Assembly: GCA_964559915.1 (NCBI GenBank) | Contig: CAZLJP010000002.1 | Coordinates: 66,423 to 130,422 of the forward strand | Direction: 5' to 3' | Source of the DNA: an uncultured Candidatus Saccharibacteria bacterium | Lineage (GTDB): Bacteria > Patescibacteriota > Saccharimonadia > Saccharimonadales > JALRHH01 | Length of the DNA stretch: 64,000 bases | Part shown: piece by piece, positions 37,658 to 55,866 of the stretch | Numbering within the stretch: the stretch's first letter is position 1 | Layout of the letters: each line of letters begins with the position of its first letter | Position numbers and translations under genes: made by a program | The notes under the pieces: generated by a model | What the model was told of the DNA's origin: nothing | What the model saw: only the letters and a program-made list of their open reading frames with translations | Databases searched by the model: none

Positions 37658-37686
37658 ATTATAGCAAAAAACTGTGCTCTTGTCAA
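37658..37686 (-). promoter_or_regulatory. Consensus sigma70-type promoter (TTGACA-17-TATAAT) for locus D
   Basis: On the minus strand, TTGACA is at 37686-37681 and TATAAT at 37663-37658. Confidence 0.7.
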
Positions 37687-37708
37687 TATCTACTACCTCT
37701 GTTATACT
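37680..37708 (+). promoter_or_regulatory. der promoter (TTGTCA-17-TATACT), -35 overlapping the divergent locus D -35
   Basis: TTGTCA is at 37680-37685 and TATACT at 37703-37708. The der ATG lies only 7 nt after the -10 box. Confidence 0.6.
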
Positions 37709-37715
37709 AGAGGCA

Positions 37716-39131
37716 ATGAGTAAGAAATTACCAATAGTTGCAATTGTCGGTAGAGCAAACGTCGGCAAGTCCAGCCTGTTCAACGAAATTCTCGGTGAAC
37801 GGGAAGCTATCGTGGCCCGCGAAGCTGGTACCACGCGTGATTCGCTGTGGGCCAGGGCAGAGCACAACGAACAGCAGTTCTGGCTGATAGATACCGCTGG
37901 CATGAAGGACGCTGAAGACGATTTCGAGCTTACAATTCAGGAGCAGATTGGAGAGGCCGCAGACGCTGCAGATGTTATTTGGGTCGTGGTTGAGGCTGAT
38001 ATACCAATCACCGAAGAAGATCGCCGTGTGGCAACTATGGCGCTCAAAACTCGTAAGCCTGTCATGCTGGTGGTCAACAAGGCCGATAAAGCCAAGCGAG
38101 CAAAAACTGAGGACTACCAACGCCTGGGTATCAAACCCATCTTCCTGACCAGTACCACGCAGCACAGTGGTGTAATTGCGCTGCTTGATGAGCTGACAAC
38201 TATCATCCCCAAGGCTTTTGAGCATCAACCAGACAATGTCCTGCGCATTGCGCTGCTGGGCCGGCCAAATGTTGGTAAATCACATCTCTTTAACTCCTTA
38301 GCAAAGAAACAGCAGGCCATCGTCGCAGACCGCGCCGGCACCACTAGGGACGTCAATCGTACGGGCGTACGCTTTGAAAAGCAAGATATCGAGCTACTAG
38401 ACACGGCTGGTATTCGCCGTAGCGGCAAAATAGAGAAGGGCATAGAACAGTTTAGTGTTATCCGTAGCCTCGCAGCCATTGAACAGGCTGATGTCTGTTT
38501 GCTATTGATGGATGTAAATGAGCTAAACACTGGGCTGGACCAAAAAATTGCCGGCATGATTAAAGAAGCAGGCAAAGGCCTCATACTAGTAGTAAGCAAG
38601 TGGGACAGTGCCGAAAAAGACGCCTACACGCGCGATCAGCTGGCTCCGCAGATTCGCGATACCTATGACTTCGTGCCGTGGGCACCACTGATTTTTACCT
38701 CTGCAGTTACCGGCCAAAATGTAACCAAATTATTTGAGCTCGCGCTCGAGATTTATACCAGCCGCCATAAGCACGTCAAGACAACTGACCTAAATCGTTG
38801 GTTGCGTGAAATCGTTGATAAACACCCTCCTGCTGGGCTCAAAAACCGCATGCCTAAGCTCAACTACATCATGCAAGAAGAGGGTGGCGACGCGCCTAAT
38901 TTCAAGATATATGGTTCACACACCAAGCTACTGCACTGGAGCTACAAGCGCTATATGGAACGCGAACTACGCGAGAAATATGGCTTTGAAGGTACCGCAA
39001 TCAAGTTCTGGTTCTTTGAAAAACACGTTACGCACAAACACGGCGTTTCACCCACAAAGACAACCAACTCAGCCTTGCAACGCTACAACGCCAAAAAGCG
39101 CAACTGGAGCAAGCGACAGGAGGAAGTGTAG
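37716..39131 (+). CDS. der: Ribosome-associated GTPase Der (EngA)
   Basis: Two tandem GTPase domains (GRANVGKSSLFN...DTAG...NKAD and GRPNVGKSHLFN...DTAG...SKWD) and a KH-like C-terminus. Start at MSKKLPIVAIVG. Confidence 0.93.
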   Translation: MSKKLPIVAIVGRANVGKSSLFNEILGEREAIVAREAGTTRDSLWARAEHNEQQFWLIDTAGMKDAEDDFELTIQEQIGEAADAADVIWVVVEADIPITEEDRRVATMALKTRKPVMLVVNKADKAKRAKTEDYQRLGIKPIFLTSTTQHSGVIALLDELTTIIPKAFEHQPDNVLRIALLGRPNVGKSHLFNSLAKKQQAIVADRAGTTRDVNRTGVRFEKQDIELLDTAGIRRSGKIEKGIEQFSVIRSLAAIEQADVCLLLMDVNELNTGLDQKIAGMIKEAGKGLILVVSKWDSAEKDAYTRDQLAPQIRDTYDFVPWAPLIFTSAVTGQNVTKLFELALEIYTSRHKHVKTTDLNRWLREIVDKHPPAGLKNRMPKLNYIMQEEGGDAPNFKIYGSHTKLLHWSYKRYMERELREKYGFEGTAIKFWFFEKHVTHKHGVSPTKTTNSALQRYNAKKRNWSKRQEEV

Positions 39132-39763
39132 TGGCACTGTTTCAAAAACGACCAGATGCTTCTTCTTATTTGCCCGTATACAGTCTAGCCCTTACCAGGA
39201 CGCTGCTCATTGTGGGTCTGGGGAATGTTGGCAAAAAGTACGACGGCACACGGCATAATATTGGCTTTGCGGCGCTGGATGAATTGGCGCACAGGCAGAG
39301 TTTTGACCCCTGGATAGAGAAAAAGGACCTTAAATGCCTGTTTACCAGCCAAACGATTGGTGAGAGCCGCGTCATACTTATTAAACCAACTACATTTATG
39401 AATCTCAGCGGCGAAGCCGTCCAAGCCACTATGCATTTCTATAAAATTCCGCTTAACCAAGTATTGGCAGTGCACGACGATCTTGATATTCCATTTGGCC
39501 AGATTCGCACCCGTATAGGCGGTAGTAGCGCAGGGCATAACGGTATCAAATCAATCTCACAGCACCTGGGCGAAGAATACGGCCGTGTACGCATTGGTGT
39601 GGGCGCAGAAACGCCTATGGACACCAGCGACTTTGTGCTCGCCAAGTTTAGTACGGATGAAAAGGCCGAGCAATCGGCTCTACTCAAAGAAACGACCGCC
39701 ATTTTGACGGAATACATCCATGGCGGTCAGTTACTTGCGGAAACCCGCAGCTTCCTTATATAG
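39131..39763 (+). CDS. pth: Peptidyl-tRNA hydrolase
   Basis: LIVGLGNVGKKYDGTRHNIGF, VHDDLDIPFG and GHNGIKS. The GTG start overlapping the der stop is plausible but uncertain. Confidence 0.88.
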   Translation: MALFQKRPDASSYLPVYSLALTRTLLIVGLGNVGKKYDGTRHNIGFAALDELAHRQSFDPWIEKKDLKCLFTSQTIGESRVILIKPTTFMNLSGEAVQATMHFYKIPLNQVLAVHDDLDIPFGQIRTRIGGSSAGHNGIKSISQHLGEEYGRVRIGVGAETPMDTSDFVLAKFSTDEKAEQSALLKETTAILTEYIHGGQLLAETRSFLI

Positions 39764-40064
39764 TTGGCTGTGAAGCCTGTTTCATAATAAGTTCGAGGTG
39801 TTCATCTGGACACAAGTCAAAGACTCTGGTCGCAAAGCCTCCAAGACTAGCTGCTCGAATCTGACTTTTGCGAACTCTACCAATAATCTCTGCGTTATTA
39901 CCCGCAAAGGCAATCTGATGAATACTGATATCAGTTATCTTGCCAGCTACATCACTAAAAGCAACCGCAACATCTAGTGCATCGGCTACTGGTATGGCCT
40001 CGGGAACATCAAATTCTAGTCGTTCCTCTGGGCTAAATATAATTATGTCTTTATCGCGTTGCAT
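39756..40064 (-). CDS. Hypothetical protein (102 aa)
   Basis: ATG 40064 is preceded by GAAAGG. Codon usage is A/T-ending. The track start at 40127 falls inside a terminator hairpin and is rejected. Confidence 0.5.
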   Translation of the reverse strand: MQRDKDIIIFSPEERLEFDVPEAIPVADALDVAVAFSDVAGKITDISIHQIAFAGNNAEIIGRVRKSQIRAASLGGFATRVFDLCPDEHLELIMKQASQPTI

Positions 40065-40100
40065 ACAAGCCTTTCTTGTCATTTCATTATACTCTGAATG

Positions 40101-40143
40101 AAAAGAGCTCACAGAGGGGGTGGGCACCGCTGTGAGCTCTTTT
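40101..40143. terminator. Strong bidirectional terminator hairpin
   Basis: AAAAGAGCTCACAG (40101-40114) pairs perfectly with CTGTGAGCTCTTTT (40130-40143) around a 15-nt loop. Confidence 0.8.
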
Positions 40144-40420
40144 CACCCTTCAACCCACCCGAGCGAAACATCAACGTCCTATAGATTACGGACTTGTGTC
40201 TCTCGCCGAAGCAAGAACCGTCTAGGCTCGCTTTGAATTCGGGAGTTAAAGGGGTTAGTTTGTTTTAGAACGTTTATTCCCGAAGGAGTAAAGCAAGAAA
40301 TAAGTGGAGGGTAACAACTTAAGGCTCGGCGCGCTCTAAAACAATCTAACAATCCACCCAAGGGGTGAAGAGTTAAAATGGGGGTTATAAGGTGCAAAAA
40401 CGCGTATACCACGTTTACAG
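40144..40420 (-). ncRNA. Candidate non-coding RNA or cis-regulatory leader (~320 nt transcript including the terminator)
   Basis: It is bounded by a consensus promoter (40455-40427) and the terminator at 40143-40101. No credible ORF. It contains two C(UUCG)G-type hairpins and an 8-bp helix GTTTTAGA/TCTAAAAC (40262-69 with 40334-41). Confidence 0.4.
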
Positions 40421-40426
40421 GTTGCA

Positions 40427-40455
40427 ATTTTAGCAAATTTGTTGCTTTGTGTCAA
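40427..40455 (-). promoter_or_regulatory. Consensus sigma70-type promoter (TTGACA-17-TAAAAT)
   Basis: On the minus strand, TTGACA is at 40455-40450 and TAAAAT at 40432-40427. Confidence 0.65.
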
Positions 40456-40542
40456 TACTTAAACATACATTTGACTTTATTACTAATTTAAAACATTAGC
40501 GGATTGTTATCTCGGGCGGGGGACTTTACAATAGTTTGTAGT

Positions 40543-41400
40543 ATGAAGATTCAGCGTCTTAGGCCCGGCTCAGACACATTCCCGGGGTTACTCAACACTA
40601 TCGCAGACCCACCGAAGCAGTTGTTCTGCTTGGGCGACCTCTCAAAACTCATGCAGCGACCCAAATTGGCTGTGGTGGGAAGCCGCAAGGTTTCGACTTA
40701 TGGCCGCGCTGTCACGCTCAGGCTTGCCAAAGAAGCAGCCGAGCAGGGAATTGTAATAATTAGCGGCTTAGCGCTGGGTGTTGACGGTATAGCCCACCTG
40801 GCGGCTCTAGAAGCAGGTGGACAGACCATTGCCGTGTTGCCGAGCGGTTTGGACGCAATCTATCCTGCAAGCCACCGACAACTGGCAGAACGCATTCTTA
40901 CCACCTGTGGGGCATTAATTACTGAATATCCGATAGGGAGCGAACCGTATAAGACAAACTTTATTGCCCGTAATCGCTTGATATCAGGGCTGAGTGATGC
41001 TGTGCTCATTACTGAAGCCGCGGCCAAAAGCGGTAGCCTTCATACAGCTCAATTCGGGCTTGAGCAGGGCAGAACAGTCATGGCTGTACCCGGGAATATC
41101 ACCAGTGAGCTATCGGCCGGAACCAACAATCTCATCAAGATGGGCGCTACGCCAGTTACTGAGCTGCGCGACATATTGGCGGCCATGAATCTGACGCAGC
41201 AACAGAGAAAAGAAGCGCCACTTGGTTCGACCAATGAAGAAACCACCATTCTACAGCTCATACACGGCGGGATTAGTGACAGCGCAGAGCTCCATGCGCG
41301 TAGTCAACTATCACCCCAGTTATTCAACCAATCATTATCGATGCTCGAGATACAGGGCAAGGTTAGAGCACTAGGTGCTAGCCATTATGGGCTGACTTAG
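40543..41400 (+). CDS. dprA: DNA-processing protein DprA (Smf)
   Basis: GSRKVSTYGRAVTLRLAKEAAEQGIVIISGLALGVDGIAHLAALEAGGQTIAVLPSGLDAIYPASH. Start at MKIQRLRPG, with TTGTTA-17-TACAAT ending 10 nt upstream. Confidence 0.9.
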   Translation: MKIQRLRPGSDTFPGLLNTIADPPKQLFCLGDLSKLMQRPKLAVVGSRKVSTYGRAVTLRLAKEAAEQGIVIISGLALGVDGIAHLAALEAGGQTIAVLPSGLDAIYPASHRQLAERILTTCGALITEYPIGSEPYKTNFIARNRLISGLSDAVLITEAAAKSGSLHTAQFGLEQGRTVMAVPGNITSELSAGTNNLIKMGATPVTELRDILAAMNLTQQQRKEAPLGSTNEETTILQLIHGGISDSAELHARSQLSPQLFNQSLSMLEIQGKVRALGASHYGLT

Positions 41401-41415
41401 CGCTATACTATCTAT

Positions 41416-41583
41416 ATGGACAGCAAAAAACTCATATATATCGGCATAGCAGTTGGCGGGACACTGGGCGGTTGGCTGGGCAGCCTGTTGGACCACGGCA
41501 ACATATTTGGTGCGTGGGGTATCATAGTGGGCGCTCTGGGTAGCCTTTTAGGTATCTGGCTGGGCTGGCGCCTAGGTCAATAG
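41416..41583 (+). CDS. Small glycine-zipper membrane protein (55 aa)
   Basis: MDSKKLIYIGIAVGGTLGGWLGSLLDHGNIFGAWGIIVGALGSLLGIWLGWRLGQ. Below the ORF-track cutoff. Confidence 0.5.
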   Translation: MDSKKLIYIGIAVGGTLGGWLGSLLDHGNIFGAWGIIVGALGSLLGIWLGWRLGQ

Positions 41584-41646: not shown

Positions 41647-43935
41647 ATGGCGAAAAACCTAGTTATTGTGGAGTCTCCGGCAAAGGCCAAGACTATCGAA
41701 AAATACCTCGGCTCCGACTTTACCGTCAAAAGTAGCTTTGGTCATATCCGCGACCTGCCCAAAAAGGGTCTTAATATTGATATTGAGCATGATTTTGCTC
41801 CAACTTACGATATTAGCCTAGATAAAAAGAAGGTTGTTAGCGAGCTCAAAACCGCCGCCAAAGGCGCTACCGTATGGCTCGCAAGCGATGAAGACCGCGA
41901 AGGAGAGGCTATTGCCTGGCACCTGGCACAGGCACTTGGGCTTGATATAGATAAAACCAAGCGTATTGTGTTCCACGAGATTACTAAAACGGCGATTGAA
42001 CATGCCGTCCAGAACCCGCGTACCATCGATAAACATCTCGTAGATGCCCAACAGGCACGCCGTATTTTAGACCGCCTTGTGGGCTACGAACTAAGTCCTG
42101 TACTCTGGAAAAAGGTCCGTCCGGGCTTGAGCGCTGGCCGTGTGCAATCCGTTGCGGTCCGTCTTATCGCAGAGCGCGAACGAGCTATTCGTGATTTTAC
42201 CGCAGAAGCAAAGTATAAAGTTGTTGGACAATTCCTGGCGGGCAAAGAGGGCTTAAGCGCTGAACTCAACACTCGTTTTGAAAGCGCAGATGAGGCCCGT
42301 AAGTTCCTAGAGGCTAATACCACCGCTACTTACGCCATTAGCGCTATTGAACAGTCACCAGCCAGCCGTAACCCAAGCGCGCCGTTCACCACCAGTAGCC
42401 TACAGCAAGAAGCCGCTCGCCGCCTGGGCTATGGCGTAAAACAAACTATGACATTGGCTCAGCGCCTATACGAAGCTGGTCATATCACCTACATGCGTAC
42501 CGATAGTACAACGTTATCTGGCTTTGCTATCAAAGCTGCTGAGGAATATATTCTCAAGGAATTTGGCAAAGACTACCACAAACTACGTCAGTTCAAGACC
42601 AAGAACGATTCCGCGCAGGAAGCTCACGAAGCAATCCGTCCCACTGATTTTAGACAGCTCAGCCAAGGTGCTGATGCTCAACAGATAAAATTATATGAGC
42701 TGATTTGGCGCCGGGCTATTGCCAGCCAGATGGCTCCAGCAGCAATCGATAAAACTGATATCAAAATTCGCATCAGCACTCGGGATGAAGTCTTCAGCGC
42801 CAAGGGCGAAGTACTGCAGTTTGATGGTTTCCTGAAAGTATACGGTGGTGGTAAAGACGACGTTATCCTGCCAGCCGTAACAGTTGGGCAGCCACTCAAT
42901 CGTGACGATATCATTGCAAGTCAGGTGTTTAGCCGGGCGCCAGCTCGCTATTCAGAAGCCAGCCTGGTTAAGGCACTCGAGGAATTAGGAATTGGGCGAC
43001 CTAGCACCTATGCGCCAACAATTAACACCATTCAGGTTCGTGAATATGTCGTTAAATCAGATTTAGAGGGCACCGAACGCCAAGTGCACAGCCTACAGCT
43101 GACCGGTGACGCCATCAGCGAAGATACCAAGACTGAAATTACCGGTGCCGACCGCAACAAACTGCTGCCTACCGCATTGGCCGACGTCACAACAGATTTT
43201 CTCGTCAAACATTTCCCAACGGTGGTAGATTATGATTTTACCGCCCGTGTGGAACAAGATTTTGACCATATTGCCGAAGGCAAGGGCACCTGGGTGGCTA
43301 TGATTAAGGAATTCTATAAAGATTTCCATCCGTTGATTGAAGCATCTGCCGATATTAGCCGCGAAGAAAGCACCCAGACCCGCCAATTGGGCGCCGACCC
43401 CAAGTCTGGCAAGCCAATCATGGCTCGTTATGGCCGGTACGGCCCTATGTTGCAACGCGGCGAGACCGAAAGTGAAGAAAAGCCAGATTTTGCCCCGATG
43501 CCTGACGGCGTACTGCTAGAGAACGTCACATTCGAGCAAGCACTTGAGATGTTCAAGCTACCACGCACGGTAGGCACTACAGAGGACGGCAAAGACATCA
43601 AAGCAAATATTGGCCGCTTTGGTCCGTACATCCAGGTAGACAAGCTATATGTGTCTATCAAGCCACATGACCCTATGAAGATTACCGAGGAAGAAGCCCG
43701 CGAGCTATACGCCAAGAAACTCGAAGTAGAGGCCAATAAGTACATTCAGATTTTTGATAAAAGTGGTATCAAAATCGTAAACGGGCCGTACGGCCCATAT
43801 GTGACCGATGGCAAGAAGAACGCCCGTATTCCTAAGGCAACCGACCCCGTCAAGATGACTGAGGCAGAAGCCAAAGAGCTGATAGACAAAGCTCCAGCCC
43901 GCAAAAAACGCGTTATCCGCCGCAAAAAGTCCTAG
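41647..43935 (+). CDS. topA: DNA topoisomerase I
   Basis: 762 aa. Toprim region LVIVESPAKAKTIEKYLG and DEDREGE. Active-site region ITYMRTDS. The C-terminal repeats carry GRYGPM, GRFGPY and GPYGPY without Cys4 motifs. Lys/Arg tail. Confidence 0.96.
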   Translation: MAKNLVIVESPAKAKTIEKYLGSDFTVKSSFGHIRDLPKKGLNIDIEHDFAPTYDISLDKKKVVSELKTAAKGATVWLASDEDREGEAIAWHLAQALGLDIDKTKRIVFHEITKTAIEHAVQNPRTIDKHLVDAQQARRILDRLVGYELSPVLWKKVRPGLSAGRVQSVAVRLIAERERAIRDFTAEAKYKVVGQFLAGKEGLSAELNTRFESADEARKFLEANTTATYAISAIEQSPASRNPSAPFTTSSLQQEAARRLGYGVKQTMTLAQRLYEAGHITYMRTDSTTLSGFAIKAAEEYILKEFGKDYHKLRQFKTKNDSAQEAHEAIRPTDFRQLSQGADAQQIKLYELIWRRAIASQMAPAAIDKTDIKIRISTRDEVFSAKGEVLQFDGFLKVYGGGKDDVILPAVTVGQPLNRDDIIASQVFSRAPARYSEASLVKALEELGIGRPSTYAPTINTIQVREYVVKSDLEGTERQVHSLQLTGDAISEDTKTEITGADRNKLLPTALADVTTDFLVKHFPTVVDYDFTARVEQDFDHIAEGKGTWVAMIKEFYKDFHPLIEASADISREESTQTRQLGADPKSGKPIMARYGRYGPMLQRGETESEEKPDFAPMPDGVLLENVTFEQALEMFKLPRTVGTTEDGKDIKANIGRFGPYIQVDKLYVSIKPHDPMKITEEEARELYAKKLEVEANKYIQIFDKSGIKIVNGPYGPYVTDGKKNARIPKATDPVKMTEAEAKELIDKAPARKKRVIRRKKS

Positions 43936-55189: not shown

Positions 55190-55828
55190 TTACTTGGCTT
55201 TATCGTCTGGATATAGCTGATAGCCTGGTTCCGTGGGGTTGCCATCGCCTTCACCCGGAAGATACAGTGTATCGCCCGCAGCGATACCGCTGTGGTTATT
55301 CATATTGAGACCGCGGTCATTGTTCATCTGAATGATGGCATCGACTGCTTCTTTCGTAGTAACTTTTTGGCTTTCATCTTCTACTGAGGCGTTGATATTC
55401 TGAGCAACTTGCTCACCTGTTTCACTTAAAGTTTCACCTGGCTGTACGGTGCGGAAATCAGGGCTTGGATTTTGTAGGACAGCTGGGACTTCTTCTTTGG
55501 GAGCGTCTTTACCGTGCGTTAAGTTGCCTAACGAACTAATACCCACTACGAATGCGCCTGCGGCCACAGCTATTTTTTGAGCCAGCGAAAGCTTTTCGGG
55601 CTTTGAGTTTGCTTTGTTTATTGCCTCTTGTGAATTACTAGACTCTGCTGGCAAGGCTGCCTGGCTGATGTTTTGGTATTCCGCAGGTTTTGCTTCAGCA
55701 ACCATGTTCAGTGTCTTGTCGGTGTCAGCAACAAACTCGTCTTCTCGACTTTGCTGTAGCTTAGGCTCAATTGGTACGACGTTATTTTGTAAATTTTCTG
55801 GAGTGTTTGGGTTTTGTGTTTCTGACAT
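55190..55828 (-). CDS. Hypothetical membrane-anchored protein with LysM-like C-terminus
   Basis: 212 aa. One TM (IAVAAGAFVVGISSL). The C-terminal segment VQPGETLSETGEQVAQ...GIAAGDTLYLPG resembles LysM. Confidence 0.45.
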   Translation of the reverse strand: MSETQNPNTPENLQNNVVPIEPKLQQSREDEFVADTDKTLNMVAEAKPAEYQNISQAALPAESSNSQEAINKANSKPEKLSLAQKIAVAAGAFVVGISSLGNLTHGKDAPKEEVPAVLQNPSPDFRTVQPGETLSETGEQVAQNINASVEDESQKVTTKEAVDAIIQMNNDRGLNMNNHSGIAAGDTLYLPGEGDGNPTEPGYQLYPDDKAK

Positions 55829-55837
55829 AATATTGAC

Positions 55838-55866
55838 ATTTTAGCAAAACATTAGCTTTTTGTCAA
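55838..55866 (-). promoter_or_regulatory. Consensus sigma70-type promoter (TTGACA-17-TAAAAT), 9 nt from the start codon
   Basis: On the minus strand, TTGACA is at 55866-55861 and TAAAAT at 55843-55838. It is flanked by the 12-bp inverted repeat ATAATATTGACA/TGTCAATATTAT. Confidence 0.6.

Follow-up and report, generated by a model that had tools for sequence, protein, structure and literature searches.

The window analysed here, a stretch of 64,000 nucleotides (nt) from an uncultured Candidatus Saccharibacteria bacterium of the order Saccharimonadales, contains on its minus strand what is very probably an independent, conserved gene for a structured non-coding RNA (ncRNA) of a new family. The gene has a strong extended -10 promoter and an intrinsic terminator of its own, and would yield a structured RNA of about 323 nt. 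To the full statement, namely that this independent gene of a new family produces a trans-acting RNA working as a folded particle via three C-rich elements, we assign a probability of about 0.6. The RNA would then act in trans, and not as a cis leader, either as the RNA subunit or scaffold of a ribonucleoprotein (RNP) or as an RNA-only assembly; its contact surface would be the three C-rich elements, invariant and unpaired, and its ligand a protein or a G-rich nucleic acid. The novelty is that of an RNA family, without counterpart in Rfam or in the literature searched. An earlier note on this DNA had offered two descriptions of the interval, a candidate ncRNA and a riboswitch-like leader. The former is borne out by a conserved transcription unit, extensive strand-specific covariation and the lack of a coding signal, while the latter falls, as the unit matches no riboswitch or leader family of Rfam and has no obligatory downstream gene.

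The promoter reported in the earlier note (TTGACA, 17 nt, TAAAAT on the minus strand) is indeed present: it is a near-consensus extended -10 promoter of the sigma-70 type, with 11 of 12 consensus matches plus TG. The number of promoters found in a 3-kb region (4) equals the expectation from shuffled sequence (4.0), and the significance of this one therefore comes from its conservation and not from the count alone. It is kept in 98 of 98 distinct full-length homologues with enough flanking sequence, where the -35 element is TTGACA in 93 cases and TTGACT in 5, the spacer is 17 nt long in 88 copies and 16 nt long in the other 10, TG is found in all 98 and the -10 element has the form TAnnnT. The resulting consensus is aaAGTATTGACAtaa..tTTGcTAaaAT.GCAA. 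Another promoter built in this way (TTGACA-17-TGCTAAAAT) occurs elsewhere in the window, at 55838-55866 on the minus strand, and precedes an open reading frame (ORF) with its ATG at 55828; the extended -10 element 'TTGCTAAAAT' seems to be the strong-promoter consensus of this organism.

At the other end, the perfect terminator hairpin that the earlier note had placed at 40143-40101 is also present, with a loop of 15 nt. A simple terminator scan overlooked it, the loop limit of that scan being 8 nt. Changes on both sides affect 10 of 10 tested pairs of the stem, while the loop is invariant, with the core GUGCCCACCCC. A U tract follows the stem on its 3' side on the minus strand only, in most homologues. 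The predicted transcript would start 5-7 nt after the -10 element (40423..40420) and end in or just after the U tract (40104..40098).

The family was found at four genome loci and on at least 120 metagenome contigs of Saccharimonadales (loci are cited below by L numbers). The metagenome contigs were retrieved with an exact query, the 20-nt invariant motif of the hairpin called P4 in Table 1, and a hidden Markov model (HMM) search recovered the whole element in essentially all of them, with 106 full-length copies and the rest cut by contig ends. Homologues measure from 276 to about 600 nt, and full-length copies are mostly 330-610 nt long. Aligned against the family HMMs, the window copy matches from end to end (E = 2.7e-103 and 1.4e-71). 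It also shows each defining part of the family, that is, the promoter, P1, J1, P3/P4, P6 and the terminator with its GUGCCCACCCC loop, in a position between pth and dprA/topA. The RNA occurs once in the 64-kb window and once at each locus, and the viral contigs of IMG/VR gave no match. The four genome loci illustrate how strongly the RNA is conserved: DprA is only 50-60% identical across these four related genomes, yet nhmmer finds a complete RNA unit beside dprA in 4 of 4, immediately upstream and divergent.

The minus-strand transcript has a minimum free energy of -116 kcal/mol (z = -6.9 against dinucleotide shuffles, with 0 of 100 shuffles as stable). As RNAalifold returned little on gappy sub-alignments, helices were defined by hand from individual folds and anchored comparison, on an alignment of 78 transcripts (A3), and were tested by pair counts. 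The ten named helices, treated as 12 in the pair counts, comprise 80 pairs. In the 78 sequences, 89.0% of the cells of these 80 pairs are standard-paired, against 35-50% in controls with partners slid by 1-3 columns. Changes on both sides occur in 52 pairs (23-33 after sliding) and in 559 cells (81-137 after sliding), and 0 of 500 shuffles reach the observed value on any of five pairing measures. The alignment of homologous loci that the earlier note had proposed thus provides compensatory changes in 52 of 80 pairs. Within helices, G-U combinations outnumber A-C combinations by 566 to 127, which establishes the minus strand as the one that is read.

P1, a 5' hairpin, opens the fold; there follow a three-way-junction domain, which is closed by P3 and displays P4, a variable domain closed by P6, and the terminator hairpin (Table 1). 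Covariation is heavy in P1, P3, P8, P9, an optional pre-terminator hairpin and the terminator stem. The P1 region folds into a local hairpin in every homologue despite differing sequence, and inside the variable domain (D3) both-sided changes affect 4 of 4 pairs of P8 and 7 of 9 pairs of P9. P4 and P6 are nearly invariant and hence carry little covariation information; P4 alone spans 20 consecutive invariant or near-invariant positions. Altogether 51 columns are invariant, 23 of them unpaired. Insertions, which measure 10-230 nt, are confined to fixed peripheral sites: P2, D3 and the stretch just ahead of the terminator. Two structural details of the earlier note can be placed in this fold. 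Its two C(UUCG)G hairpin loops are there, at 40285..40280 and 40211..40206. Its 8-bp helix is real too, but forms only part of the 18-19-bp helix P3, a 19-nt inverted repeat, and its 3' arm had been set one nucleotide out of register.

D3 itself has at least three unrelated architectures in homologues, while the rest of the RNA is constant: one, that of the window, has a UUCAAAG bulge and the helices P8 and P9, another is characterised by CCCGCA...GGAGGCCUUCAAGG, and a third is a minimal form of about 55 nt. The homologues compared for this were L014, L019, L052, L082, L083, L090, L091 and L100, and L003 and L072.

Table 1. Features of the RNA gene and of its downstream neighbour, in window coordinates.
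Feature	Position	Strand	Remarks
Promoter	40455..40427	-	-35 TTGACA 40455..40450; 17-nt spacer ending in TG 40435..40434; -10 TAAAAT 40432..40427
Predicted RNA, about 323 nt	40098..40422	-	Ends from promoter and terminator; full span covered by nhmmer matches in homologues
P1, 5' hairpin	40419..40395	-	6 of 8 pairs changed on both sides
J1, unpaired, C-rich element 1	40394..40372	-	Consensus GYACCUUAUACCCCCAUUCUAAC; invariant or near-invariant columns outside helices
P2, optional local hairpin UCUUCACCCCUUGGGUGGA	40371..40353	-	Local fold; 0 to about 230 nt in homologues
P3, 5' strand GUUAGAUUGUUUUAGAGCG	40350..40332	-	18 pairs, 94.9% paired, 11 changed on both sides
P4, invariant hairpin UAAGU-UGUUACCCUCC-ACUUA	40321..40301	-	C-rich element 2, contains CCUCC; enclosed by P3
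P5, variable hairpin	40289..40276	-	C(UUCG)G loop here; enclosed by P3; sequence and length vary in homologues
P3, 3' strand CGUUCUAAAACAAACUAAC	40272..40254	-	Same covarying helix as the P3 5' strand; 18-19 bp
P6, 5' strand CCCUUUAAC	40253..40245	-	Abuts P3; 97.8% paired, nearly invariant
D3, variable domain inside P6	40244..40155	-	Here P6b, P8, P8a, a C(UUCG)G hairpin and the long P9 hairpin
P6, 3' strand GUUGAAGGG	40154..40146	-	Partner of the P6 5' strand
Intrinsic terminator	40143..40101	-	14 perfect bp, arms AAAAGAGCUCACAG / CUGUGAGCUCUUUU; U tract 40104..40101
Terminator loop CGGUGCCCACCCCCU, 15 nt, C-rich element 3	40129..40115	-	Unchanged in 77 distinct sequences
Gene of a 102-amino-acid acidic protein	ATG 40064, stop 39759..39761	-	Neighbour, not part of the RNA; own TATAAT 40091..40086

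The three invariant unpaired C-rich elements are ACCCCC in J1, UUACCCUCC (ACCCUCC) in the P4 loop and GUGCCCACCCCCUC (CCCACCCCCUC) in the terminator loop. None of them has a conserved G-rich partner within the RNA, and we propose on this basis that they are free to bind in trans. The only G-rich block of the RNA, GGUGGG, is replaced in four lineages in which the C-rich elements are unchanged. A pseudoknot between the terminator loop and this block (CCCACC/GGUGGG) was accordingly left without support, and a pairing of GCACCUU in J1 with AAGGGUG displayed no covariation in a by-eye reading of the alignments.

Other pairings concern J1 and P3. The end of J1, UCUAAC (40372-40377), duplicates the end of the P3 3' strand, ACUAAC (40254-40259), and both can pair with GUUAG (40345-40350). 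In L022 and L082 the J1, P3 3' and GUUAG elements have all changed together, which amounts to a single evolutionary event; the competition for GUUAG hints at a possible conformational switch, or else at an interaction of all three strands. P3 also has a superficially single-guide-RNA-like aspect, as GUUUUAGAGC pairs with GCUCUAAAAC (40332-40343 with 40261-40272) after a single-stranded segment of about 22 nt. The 10-mer GUUUUAGAGC also occurs in the Streptococcus pyogenes CRISPR repeat. No cas, reverse transcriptase or IscB-like gene is found among the large ORFs of the window, and with no cas gene nearby a CRISPR- or tracrRNA-like reading of this 10-mer was treated as coincidence.

Searches for known RNA families returned no relative. 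A scan of the whole window with Rfam 15 (4227 families) at gathering score found only tRNAs elsewhere. Searches at E<=10 on a 751-nt segment, on the 331-nt RNA and on the 283-nt minimal homologue L003, and at E<=1 on 12 further homologues, gave only chance matches of the microRNA-hairpin type. The raiA, OLE, ROOL, GOLLD and HEARO models of Rfam found no match, and no riboswitch aptamer class matched at gathering score or at E<=10. Tandem Repeats Finder detected no tandem repeats in the RNA. A full-text literature search, which included literal strings of the invariant sequence, found no description of it.

The gene has a fixed chromosomal position, with der and pth on one side and dprA and topA on the other (der-pth -> / <- RNA / dprA/topA ->), so that pth converges on the RNA 3' end. 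In the window the order is der (37674-39131, plus strand), pth (39131-39763, plus strand), the gene of the 102-amino-acid protein (40064..39759, minus strand), the RNA (minus strand), dprA (40543-41400, plus strand), a 55-amino-acid ORF and topA (41647-43935, plus strand). The remaining large genes of the window are ordinary chromosomal genes, and an identical contig exists in the Logan assembly of SRR8931241. The gene that diverges from the RNA 5' end is dprA in 66 loci and topA directly in 15 loci. In these 15 of 81 loci (e.g. L068, L070 and L109) dprA is absent and topA or the small 55-amino-acid ORF lies directly upstream of the RNA, which is thus not tied to dprA. In the window, where the region compared is 40456-40543, the spacing between the dprA start and the predicted RNA start is 123 nt. 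In about 35 loci (e.g. L062 and L085) the dprA start codon is at a constant distance of only about 58 nt from the predicted RNA start and about 20 nt upstream of the RNA -35 element, a distance at which the divergent dprA/topA promoter must overlap that of the RNA; promoter competition, or supercoiling coupling with topA, is possible. The 55-amino-acid ORF (41416-41583, plus strand) lies between dprA and topA. It is glycine-rich, probably membrane-embedded, shares 48-67% identity in a dozen loci (tblastn) and has no Pfam match.

On the 3' side, what lies between the RNA terminator and pth varies in content and in length (0 to more than 2300 nt), a hotspot inside an otherwise rigidly syntenic region. 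Its contents include a CAP-domain gene (L126:3717-4682), an MMPL-like ORF of 741 amino acids (L049), a 206-amino-acid ORF (L042) and ORFs of 192-198 amino acids (L027 and L056). In L052 (876-1974, minus strand) a 206-amino-acid gene follows the RNA and is located between two copies of the RNA terminator with the invariant loop, at 1627 and 898. This arrangement looks like an insertion or duplication using the RNA 3' end, reminiscent of islands at tRNA and transfer-messenger RNA (tmRNA) 3' ends.

More frequent is a small acidic gene of the kind present in the window. About 26 loci have an acidic ORF of 80-125 amino acids directly after the RNA, and 17 of these 26 belong to one fast-evolving family according to a leave-cluster-out HMM test; loci with such a gene include L004, L020, L026, L040, L071, L085-L087, L099 and L118. 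In roughly one locus out of three, a member of this family of proteins of about 100 amino acids is encoded directly 3' of the RNA terminator and on the strand of the RNA. The family comprises 24 clusters at E<=1e-3 among 1.84e9 representatives (exhaustive profile search) and has the motif M.RDG..I.F..EQ..F..P...AV.TA...RA..L..FA..F.LCPDEHL. In about 20 loci the small genes have an extended -10 element of their own, TGnTATAAT, which follows the RNA terminator directly, precedes the ATG by 0-12 nt and is without a recognisable -35 element; from this layout they are probably transcribed independently as leaderless or near-leaderless mRNAs. The 102-amino-acid protein of the window has no match in Pfam or PADLOC. 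Its confident AlphaFold model (predicted local distance difference test score 96) shows a small N-terminal beta element and a helical hairpin, and a PDB fold search with this model returned only generic helical hairpins (E>0.5). Being acidic, helical and without Pfam, PADLOC or PDB-fold relative, the protein is unlikely to be an RNA-binding partner of the RNA.

Several explanations compete with that of an independent ncRNA gene. The interval does contain an ORF for an 85-amino-acid protein (40436..40179), whose conservation the earlier note had set against its own claim of a unit without credible ORF. That claim stands, as the roughly 323 nt hold no conserved ORF. The TTG with which the 85-amino-acid ORF begins falls within the promoter and precedes the predicted transcription start; the entropy of alignment columns (1.00/0.85/0.95 for the three codon positions) has no third-position excess; length differences between homologues are spread over the three classes modulo 3 (27/26/23), that is, indels are not multiples of three; tblastn matches are confined to the nucleotide-conserved P3-P4 block; the longest stop-free stretches of homologues have a median of 64 codons, in differing frames; and gene callers leave the interval empty. 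A coding function is thus practically negligible as an explanation. Conservation at the DNA level, by overlapping dprA/topA promoters and a bidirectional pth terminator around a functionless RNA, would suit the loci with promoter overlap and the 13 loci in which the terminator abuts or overlaps the pth stop codon. Promoter and terminator duties cannot, however, explain some 250 nt of internal conservation, the 52 compensatory pairs or a 4.5-fold excess of G-U over A-C, and the fold is retained where dprA is missing and where, as in some loci, other genes separate the RNA from pth. We regard this explanation as highly improbable. A leader or riboswitch acting in cis, in which a choice between terminator and antiterminator would control read-through into the 102-amino-acid gene, shares with known attenuation leaders the succession of promoter, structured RNA and terminator, sometimes a same-strand gene, and two CUAAC strands with one partner, so that conformational switching is conceivable. 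The complementarity between a 5' segment and the terminator arm, on which the earlier note had based this alternative, is found in the window (10 nt, 90%, 40363-40372 with 40139-40148), but it is not conserved. Its arm sits in the optional hairpin P2, which is absent (<12 nt) in 31 of 89 distinct homologues, and the pairing of P2 with the terminator arm has a median energy of -10.2 against -10.9 for shuffled P2, no better than chance. The 102-codon gene does lie directly downstream, as the earlier note said; its proposed role as regulated target is contradicted by its own -10 element and by the 22 of 72 loci in which the RNA 3' end lies <=60 nt from the convergent pth stop codon, leaving no room for a downstream gene to regulate. 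As the RNA is moreover far more conserved than the downstream small protein, and as it differs from attenuation leaders in having no obligatory downstream gene and no conserved antiterminator alternative, the leader is largely refuted and retains hardly any weight. A universal RNA diverged beyond recognition by Rfam models, whether RNase P RNA, 6S RNA, signal recognition particle (SRP) RNA or tmRNA, would agree with the housekeeping-like conservation, the strong promoter, the single copy and the finding that Rfam detects none of the four elsewhere in the 64-kb window. Some bacteria of the Candidate Phyla Radiation (CPR) have diverged RNase P RNAs that can score below Rfam cut-offs (PMC8172020), and for this reason the isolated RNA was searched at low bit scores, with matches listed down to about 10 bits. 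The RNase P models (RF00010/RF00011) and those of tmRNA, SRP and 6S RNA gave no match at E<=10 on the 331-nt RNA or on L003, which agrees with the by-eye verdict of the earlier note, and ARAGORN reported no tmRNA, its sole matches being 3 tRNAs in other parts of the window. With a local 5' hairpin, a 3' terminator and no helix closing 5' to 3' end, the topology is incompatible with RNase P (P1), 6S RNA and the tmRNA acceptor stem. The invariant columns include no P4-type purine strands of RNase P (GAGGAAAGUCC / ACAGAA), no 3' CCA, no T-arm and no SRP domain IV motif, and a multi-domain fold of 276 to about 600 nt contrasts with the rod-like 6S RNA of about 150-200 nt. RNase P was thus rejected, and a diverged universal RNA is on the whole very unlikely.

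The main rival is a trans-acting base-pairing regulator comparable to RsaE/RoxS of Firmicutes, whose C-rich motifs pair with G-rich ribosome-binding sites. The C-rich loops, among them the CCUCC resembling an anti-Shine-Dalgarno sequence, would then pair with G-rich ribosome-binding sites or other RNAs. Like these small RNAs (sRNAs), the RNA has its own promoter and terminator and exposes several unpaired C-rich motifs, here three, two of them in hairpin loops including that of the terminator. It differs from them in its length, about three times that of RsaE/RoxS and 3-5 times that of such regulators in general, and in its covarying multi-domain fold: about 323 nt with at least 10 helices, against about 100 nt with one or two hairpins. 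Its invariant blocks of 20 nt extend over the P4 stem and exceed by far the conservation of the flanking proteins, which is unusual for seed-type regulators; there is no Rfam match to RsaE/RoxS; and duplex scanning across the 64-kb window brought up no outstanding target except the antisense strand of the RNA itself. We consider such a regulator unlikely, while giving it real weight. A folded particle is favoured by the combination of an invariant unpaired core, covarying helices, fixed expansion sites, single copy and a near-consensus promoter. An invariant unpaired core with variable helices and fixed expansions is the pattern of RNase P, SRP and other RNP RNAs, and not of fast-evolving antisense sRNAs. 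The likeness to housekeeping RNP RNAs extends to the strong promoter of constitutive type, although their defining motifs and topologies are lacking. Several points weigh against the full statement. The particle mode of action is argued by analogy, and is plausible rather than probable. Transcription and RNA ends are deduced from sequence motifs only. The C-rich elements never vary, and covariation cannot tell whether they are paired. The exact P4 query means that the invariance of P4 is partly built in, whereas the other invariant elements were not in the query. The family was sampled within Saccharimonadales, to which it is specific as far as sampled; a Pth homologue search for more distant lineages returned only relatives of at least 66% identity. 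Finally, the synteny of pth, der, dprA and topA extends over the whole clade, and their proximity is no sign of a functional partnership with the RNA.

A more ambitious form of the particle reading, in which the RNA would be the core of a lineage-wide RNP or RNA-only machine of Saccharimonadales, retained in genomes smaller than 1 Mb, with a conservation like that of RNase P or SRP RNA and with C-rich loops engaging ribosomes, mRNAs or a dedicated protein, is doubtful. Within such a machine, a toggle of J1-CUAAC and P3-CUAAC over GUUAG would be possible, as would self-association via the quasi-palindromic terminator loop GGUGCCCACC.

Among known systems, the closest in general character are the large orphan RNAs, namely raiA motif RNA, OLE, ROOL and GOLLD, which are likewise stand-alone genes for RNAs of 200-800 nt with an intricate covarying fold, conserved unpaired nucleotides and a restriction to certain lineages. 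The neighbourhood of raiA includes the competence gene comFC, and the present RNA also adjoins a competence gene, dprA. Differences from these RNAs are the lack of any match to their Rfam models, the occurrence in a different phylum (Saccharimonadales, CPR), the distinctive invariant C-rich elements, and a fixed chromosomal locus in place of prophage or variable contexts. Type III toxin-antitoxin systems such as ToxIN have the layout promoter, antitoxin RNA, terminator, toxin gene, and a similar order of promoter, RNA, terminator and small gene is seen in the window and in about a third of loci. Unlike them, the RNA has no tandem repeats, and the small protein, which is acidic, helical and without PADLOC or Pfam match, is missing in many loci and evolves fast, in contrast to the nearly invariant RNA.

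The genomes of Saccharibacteria and other CPR bacteria are drastically reduced, and these organisms are poorly understood. An RNA whose core is more conserved than neighbouring essential proteins, and which is preceded by one of the strongest promoter types of the genome, very likely has an important function in the bacteria that carry it. With it, the short list of large bacterial ncRNAs gains a new class. With a fold supported by covariation, invariant surfaces and natural variants of 276 nt and about 600 nt, the RNA lends itself directly to structural and biochemical studies; cultivation and genetic manipulation are by now feasible for a few Saccharibacteria. The gene also provides a compact marker locus for contigs of Saccharimonadales.

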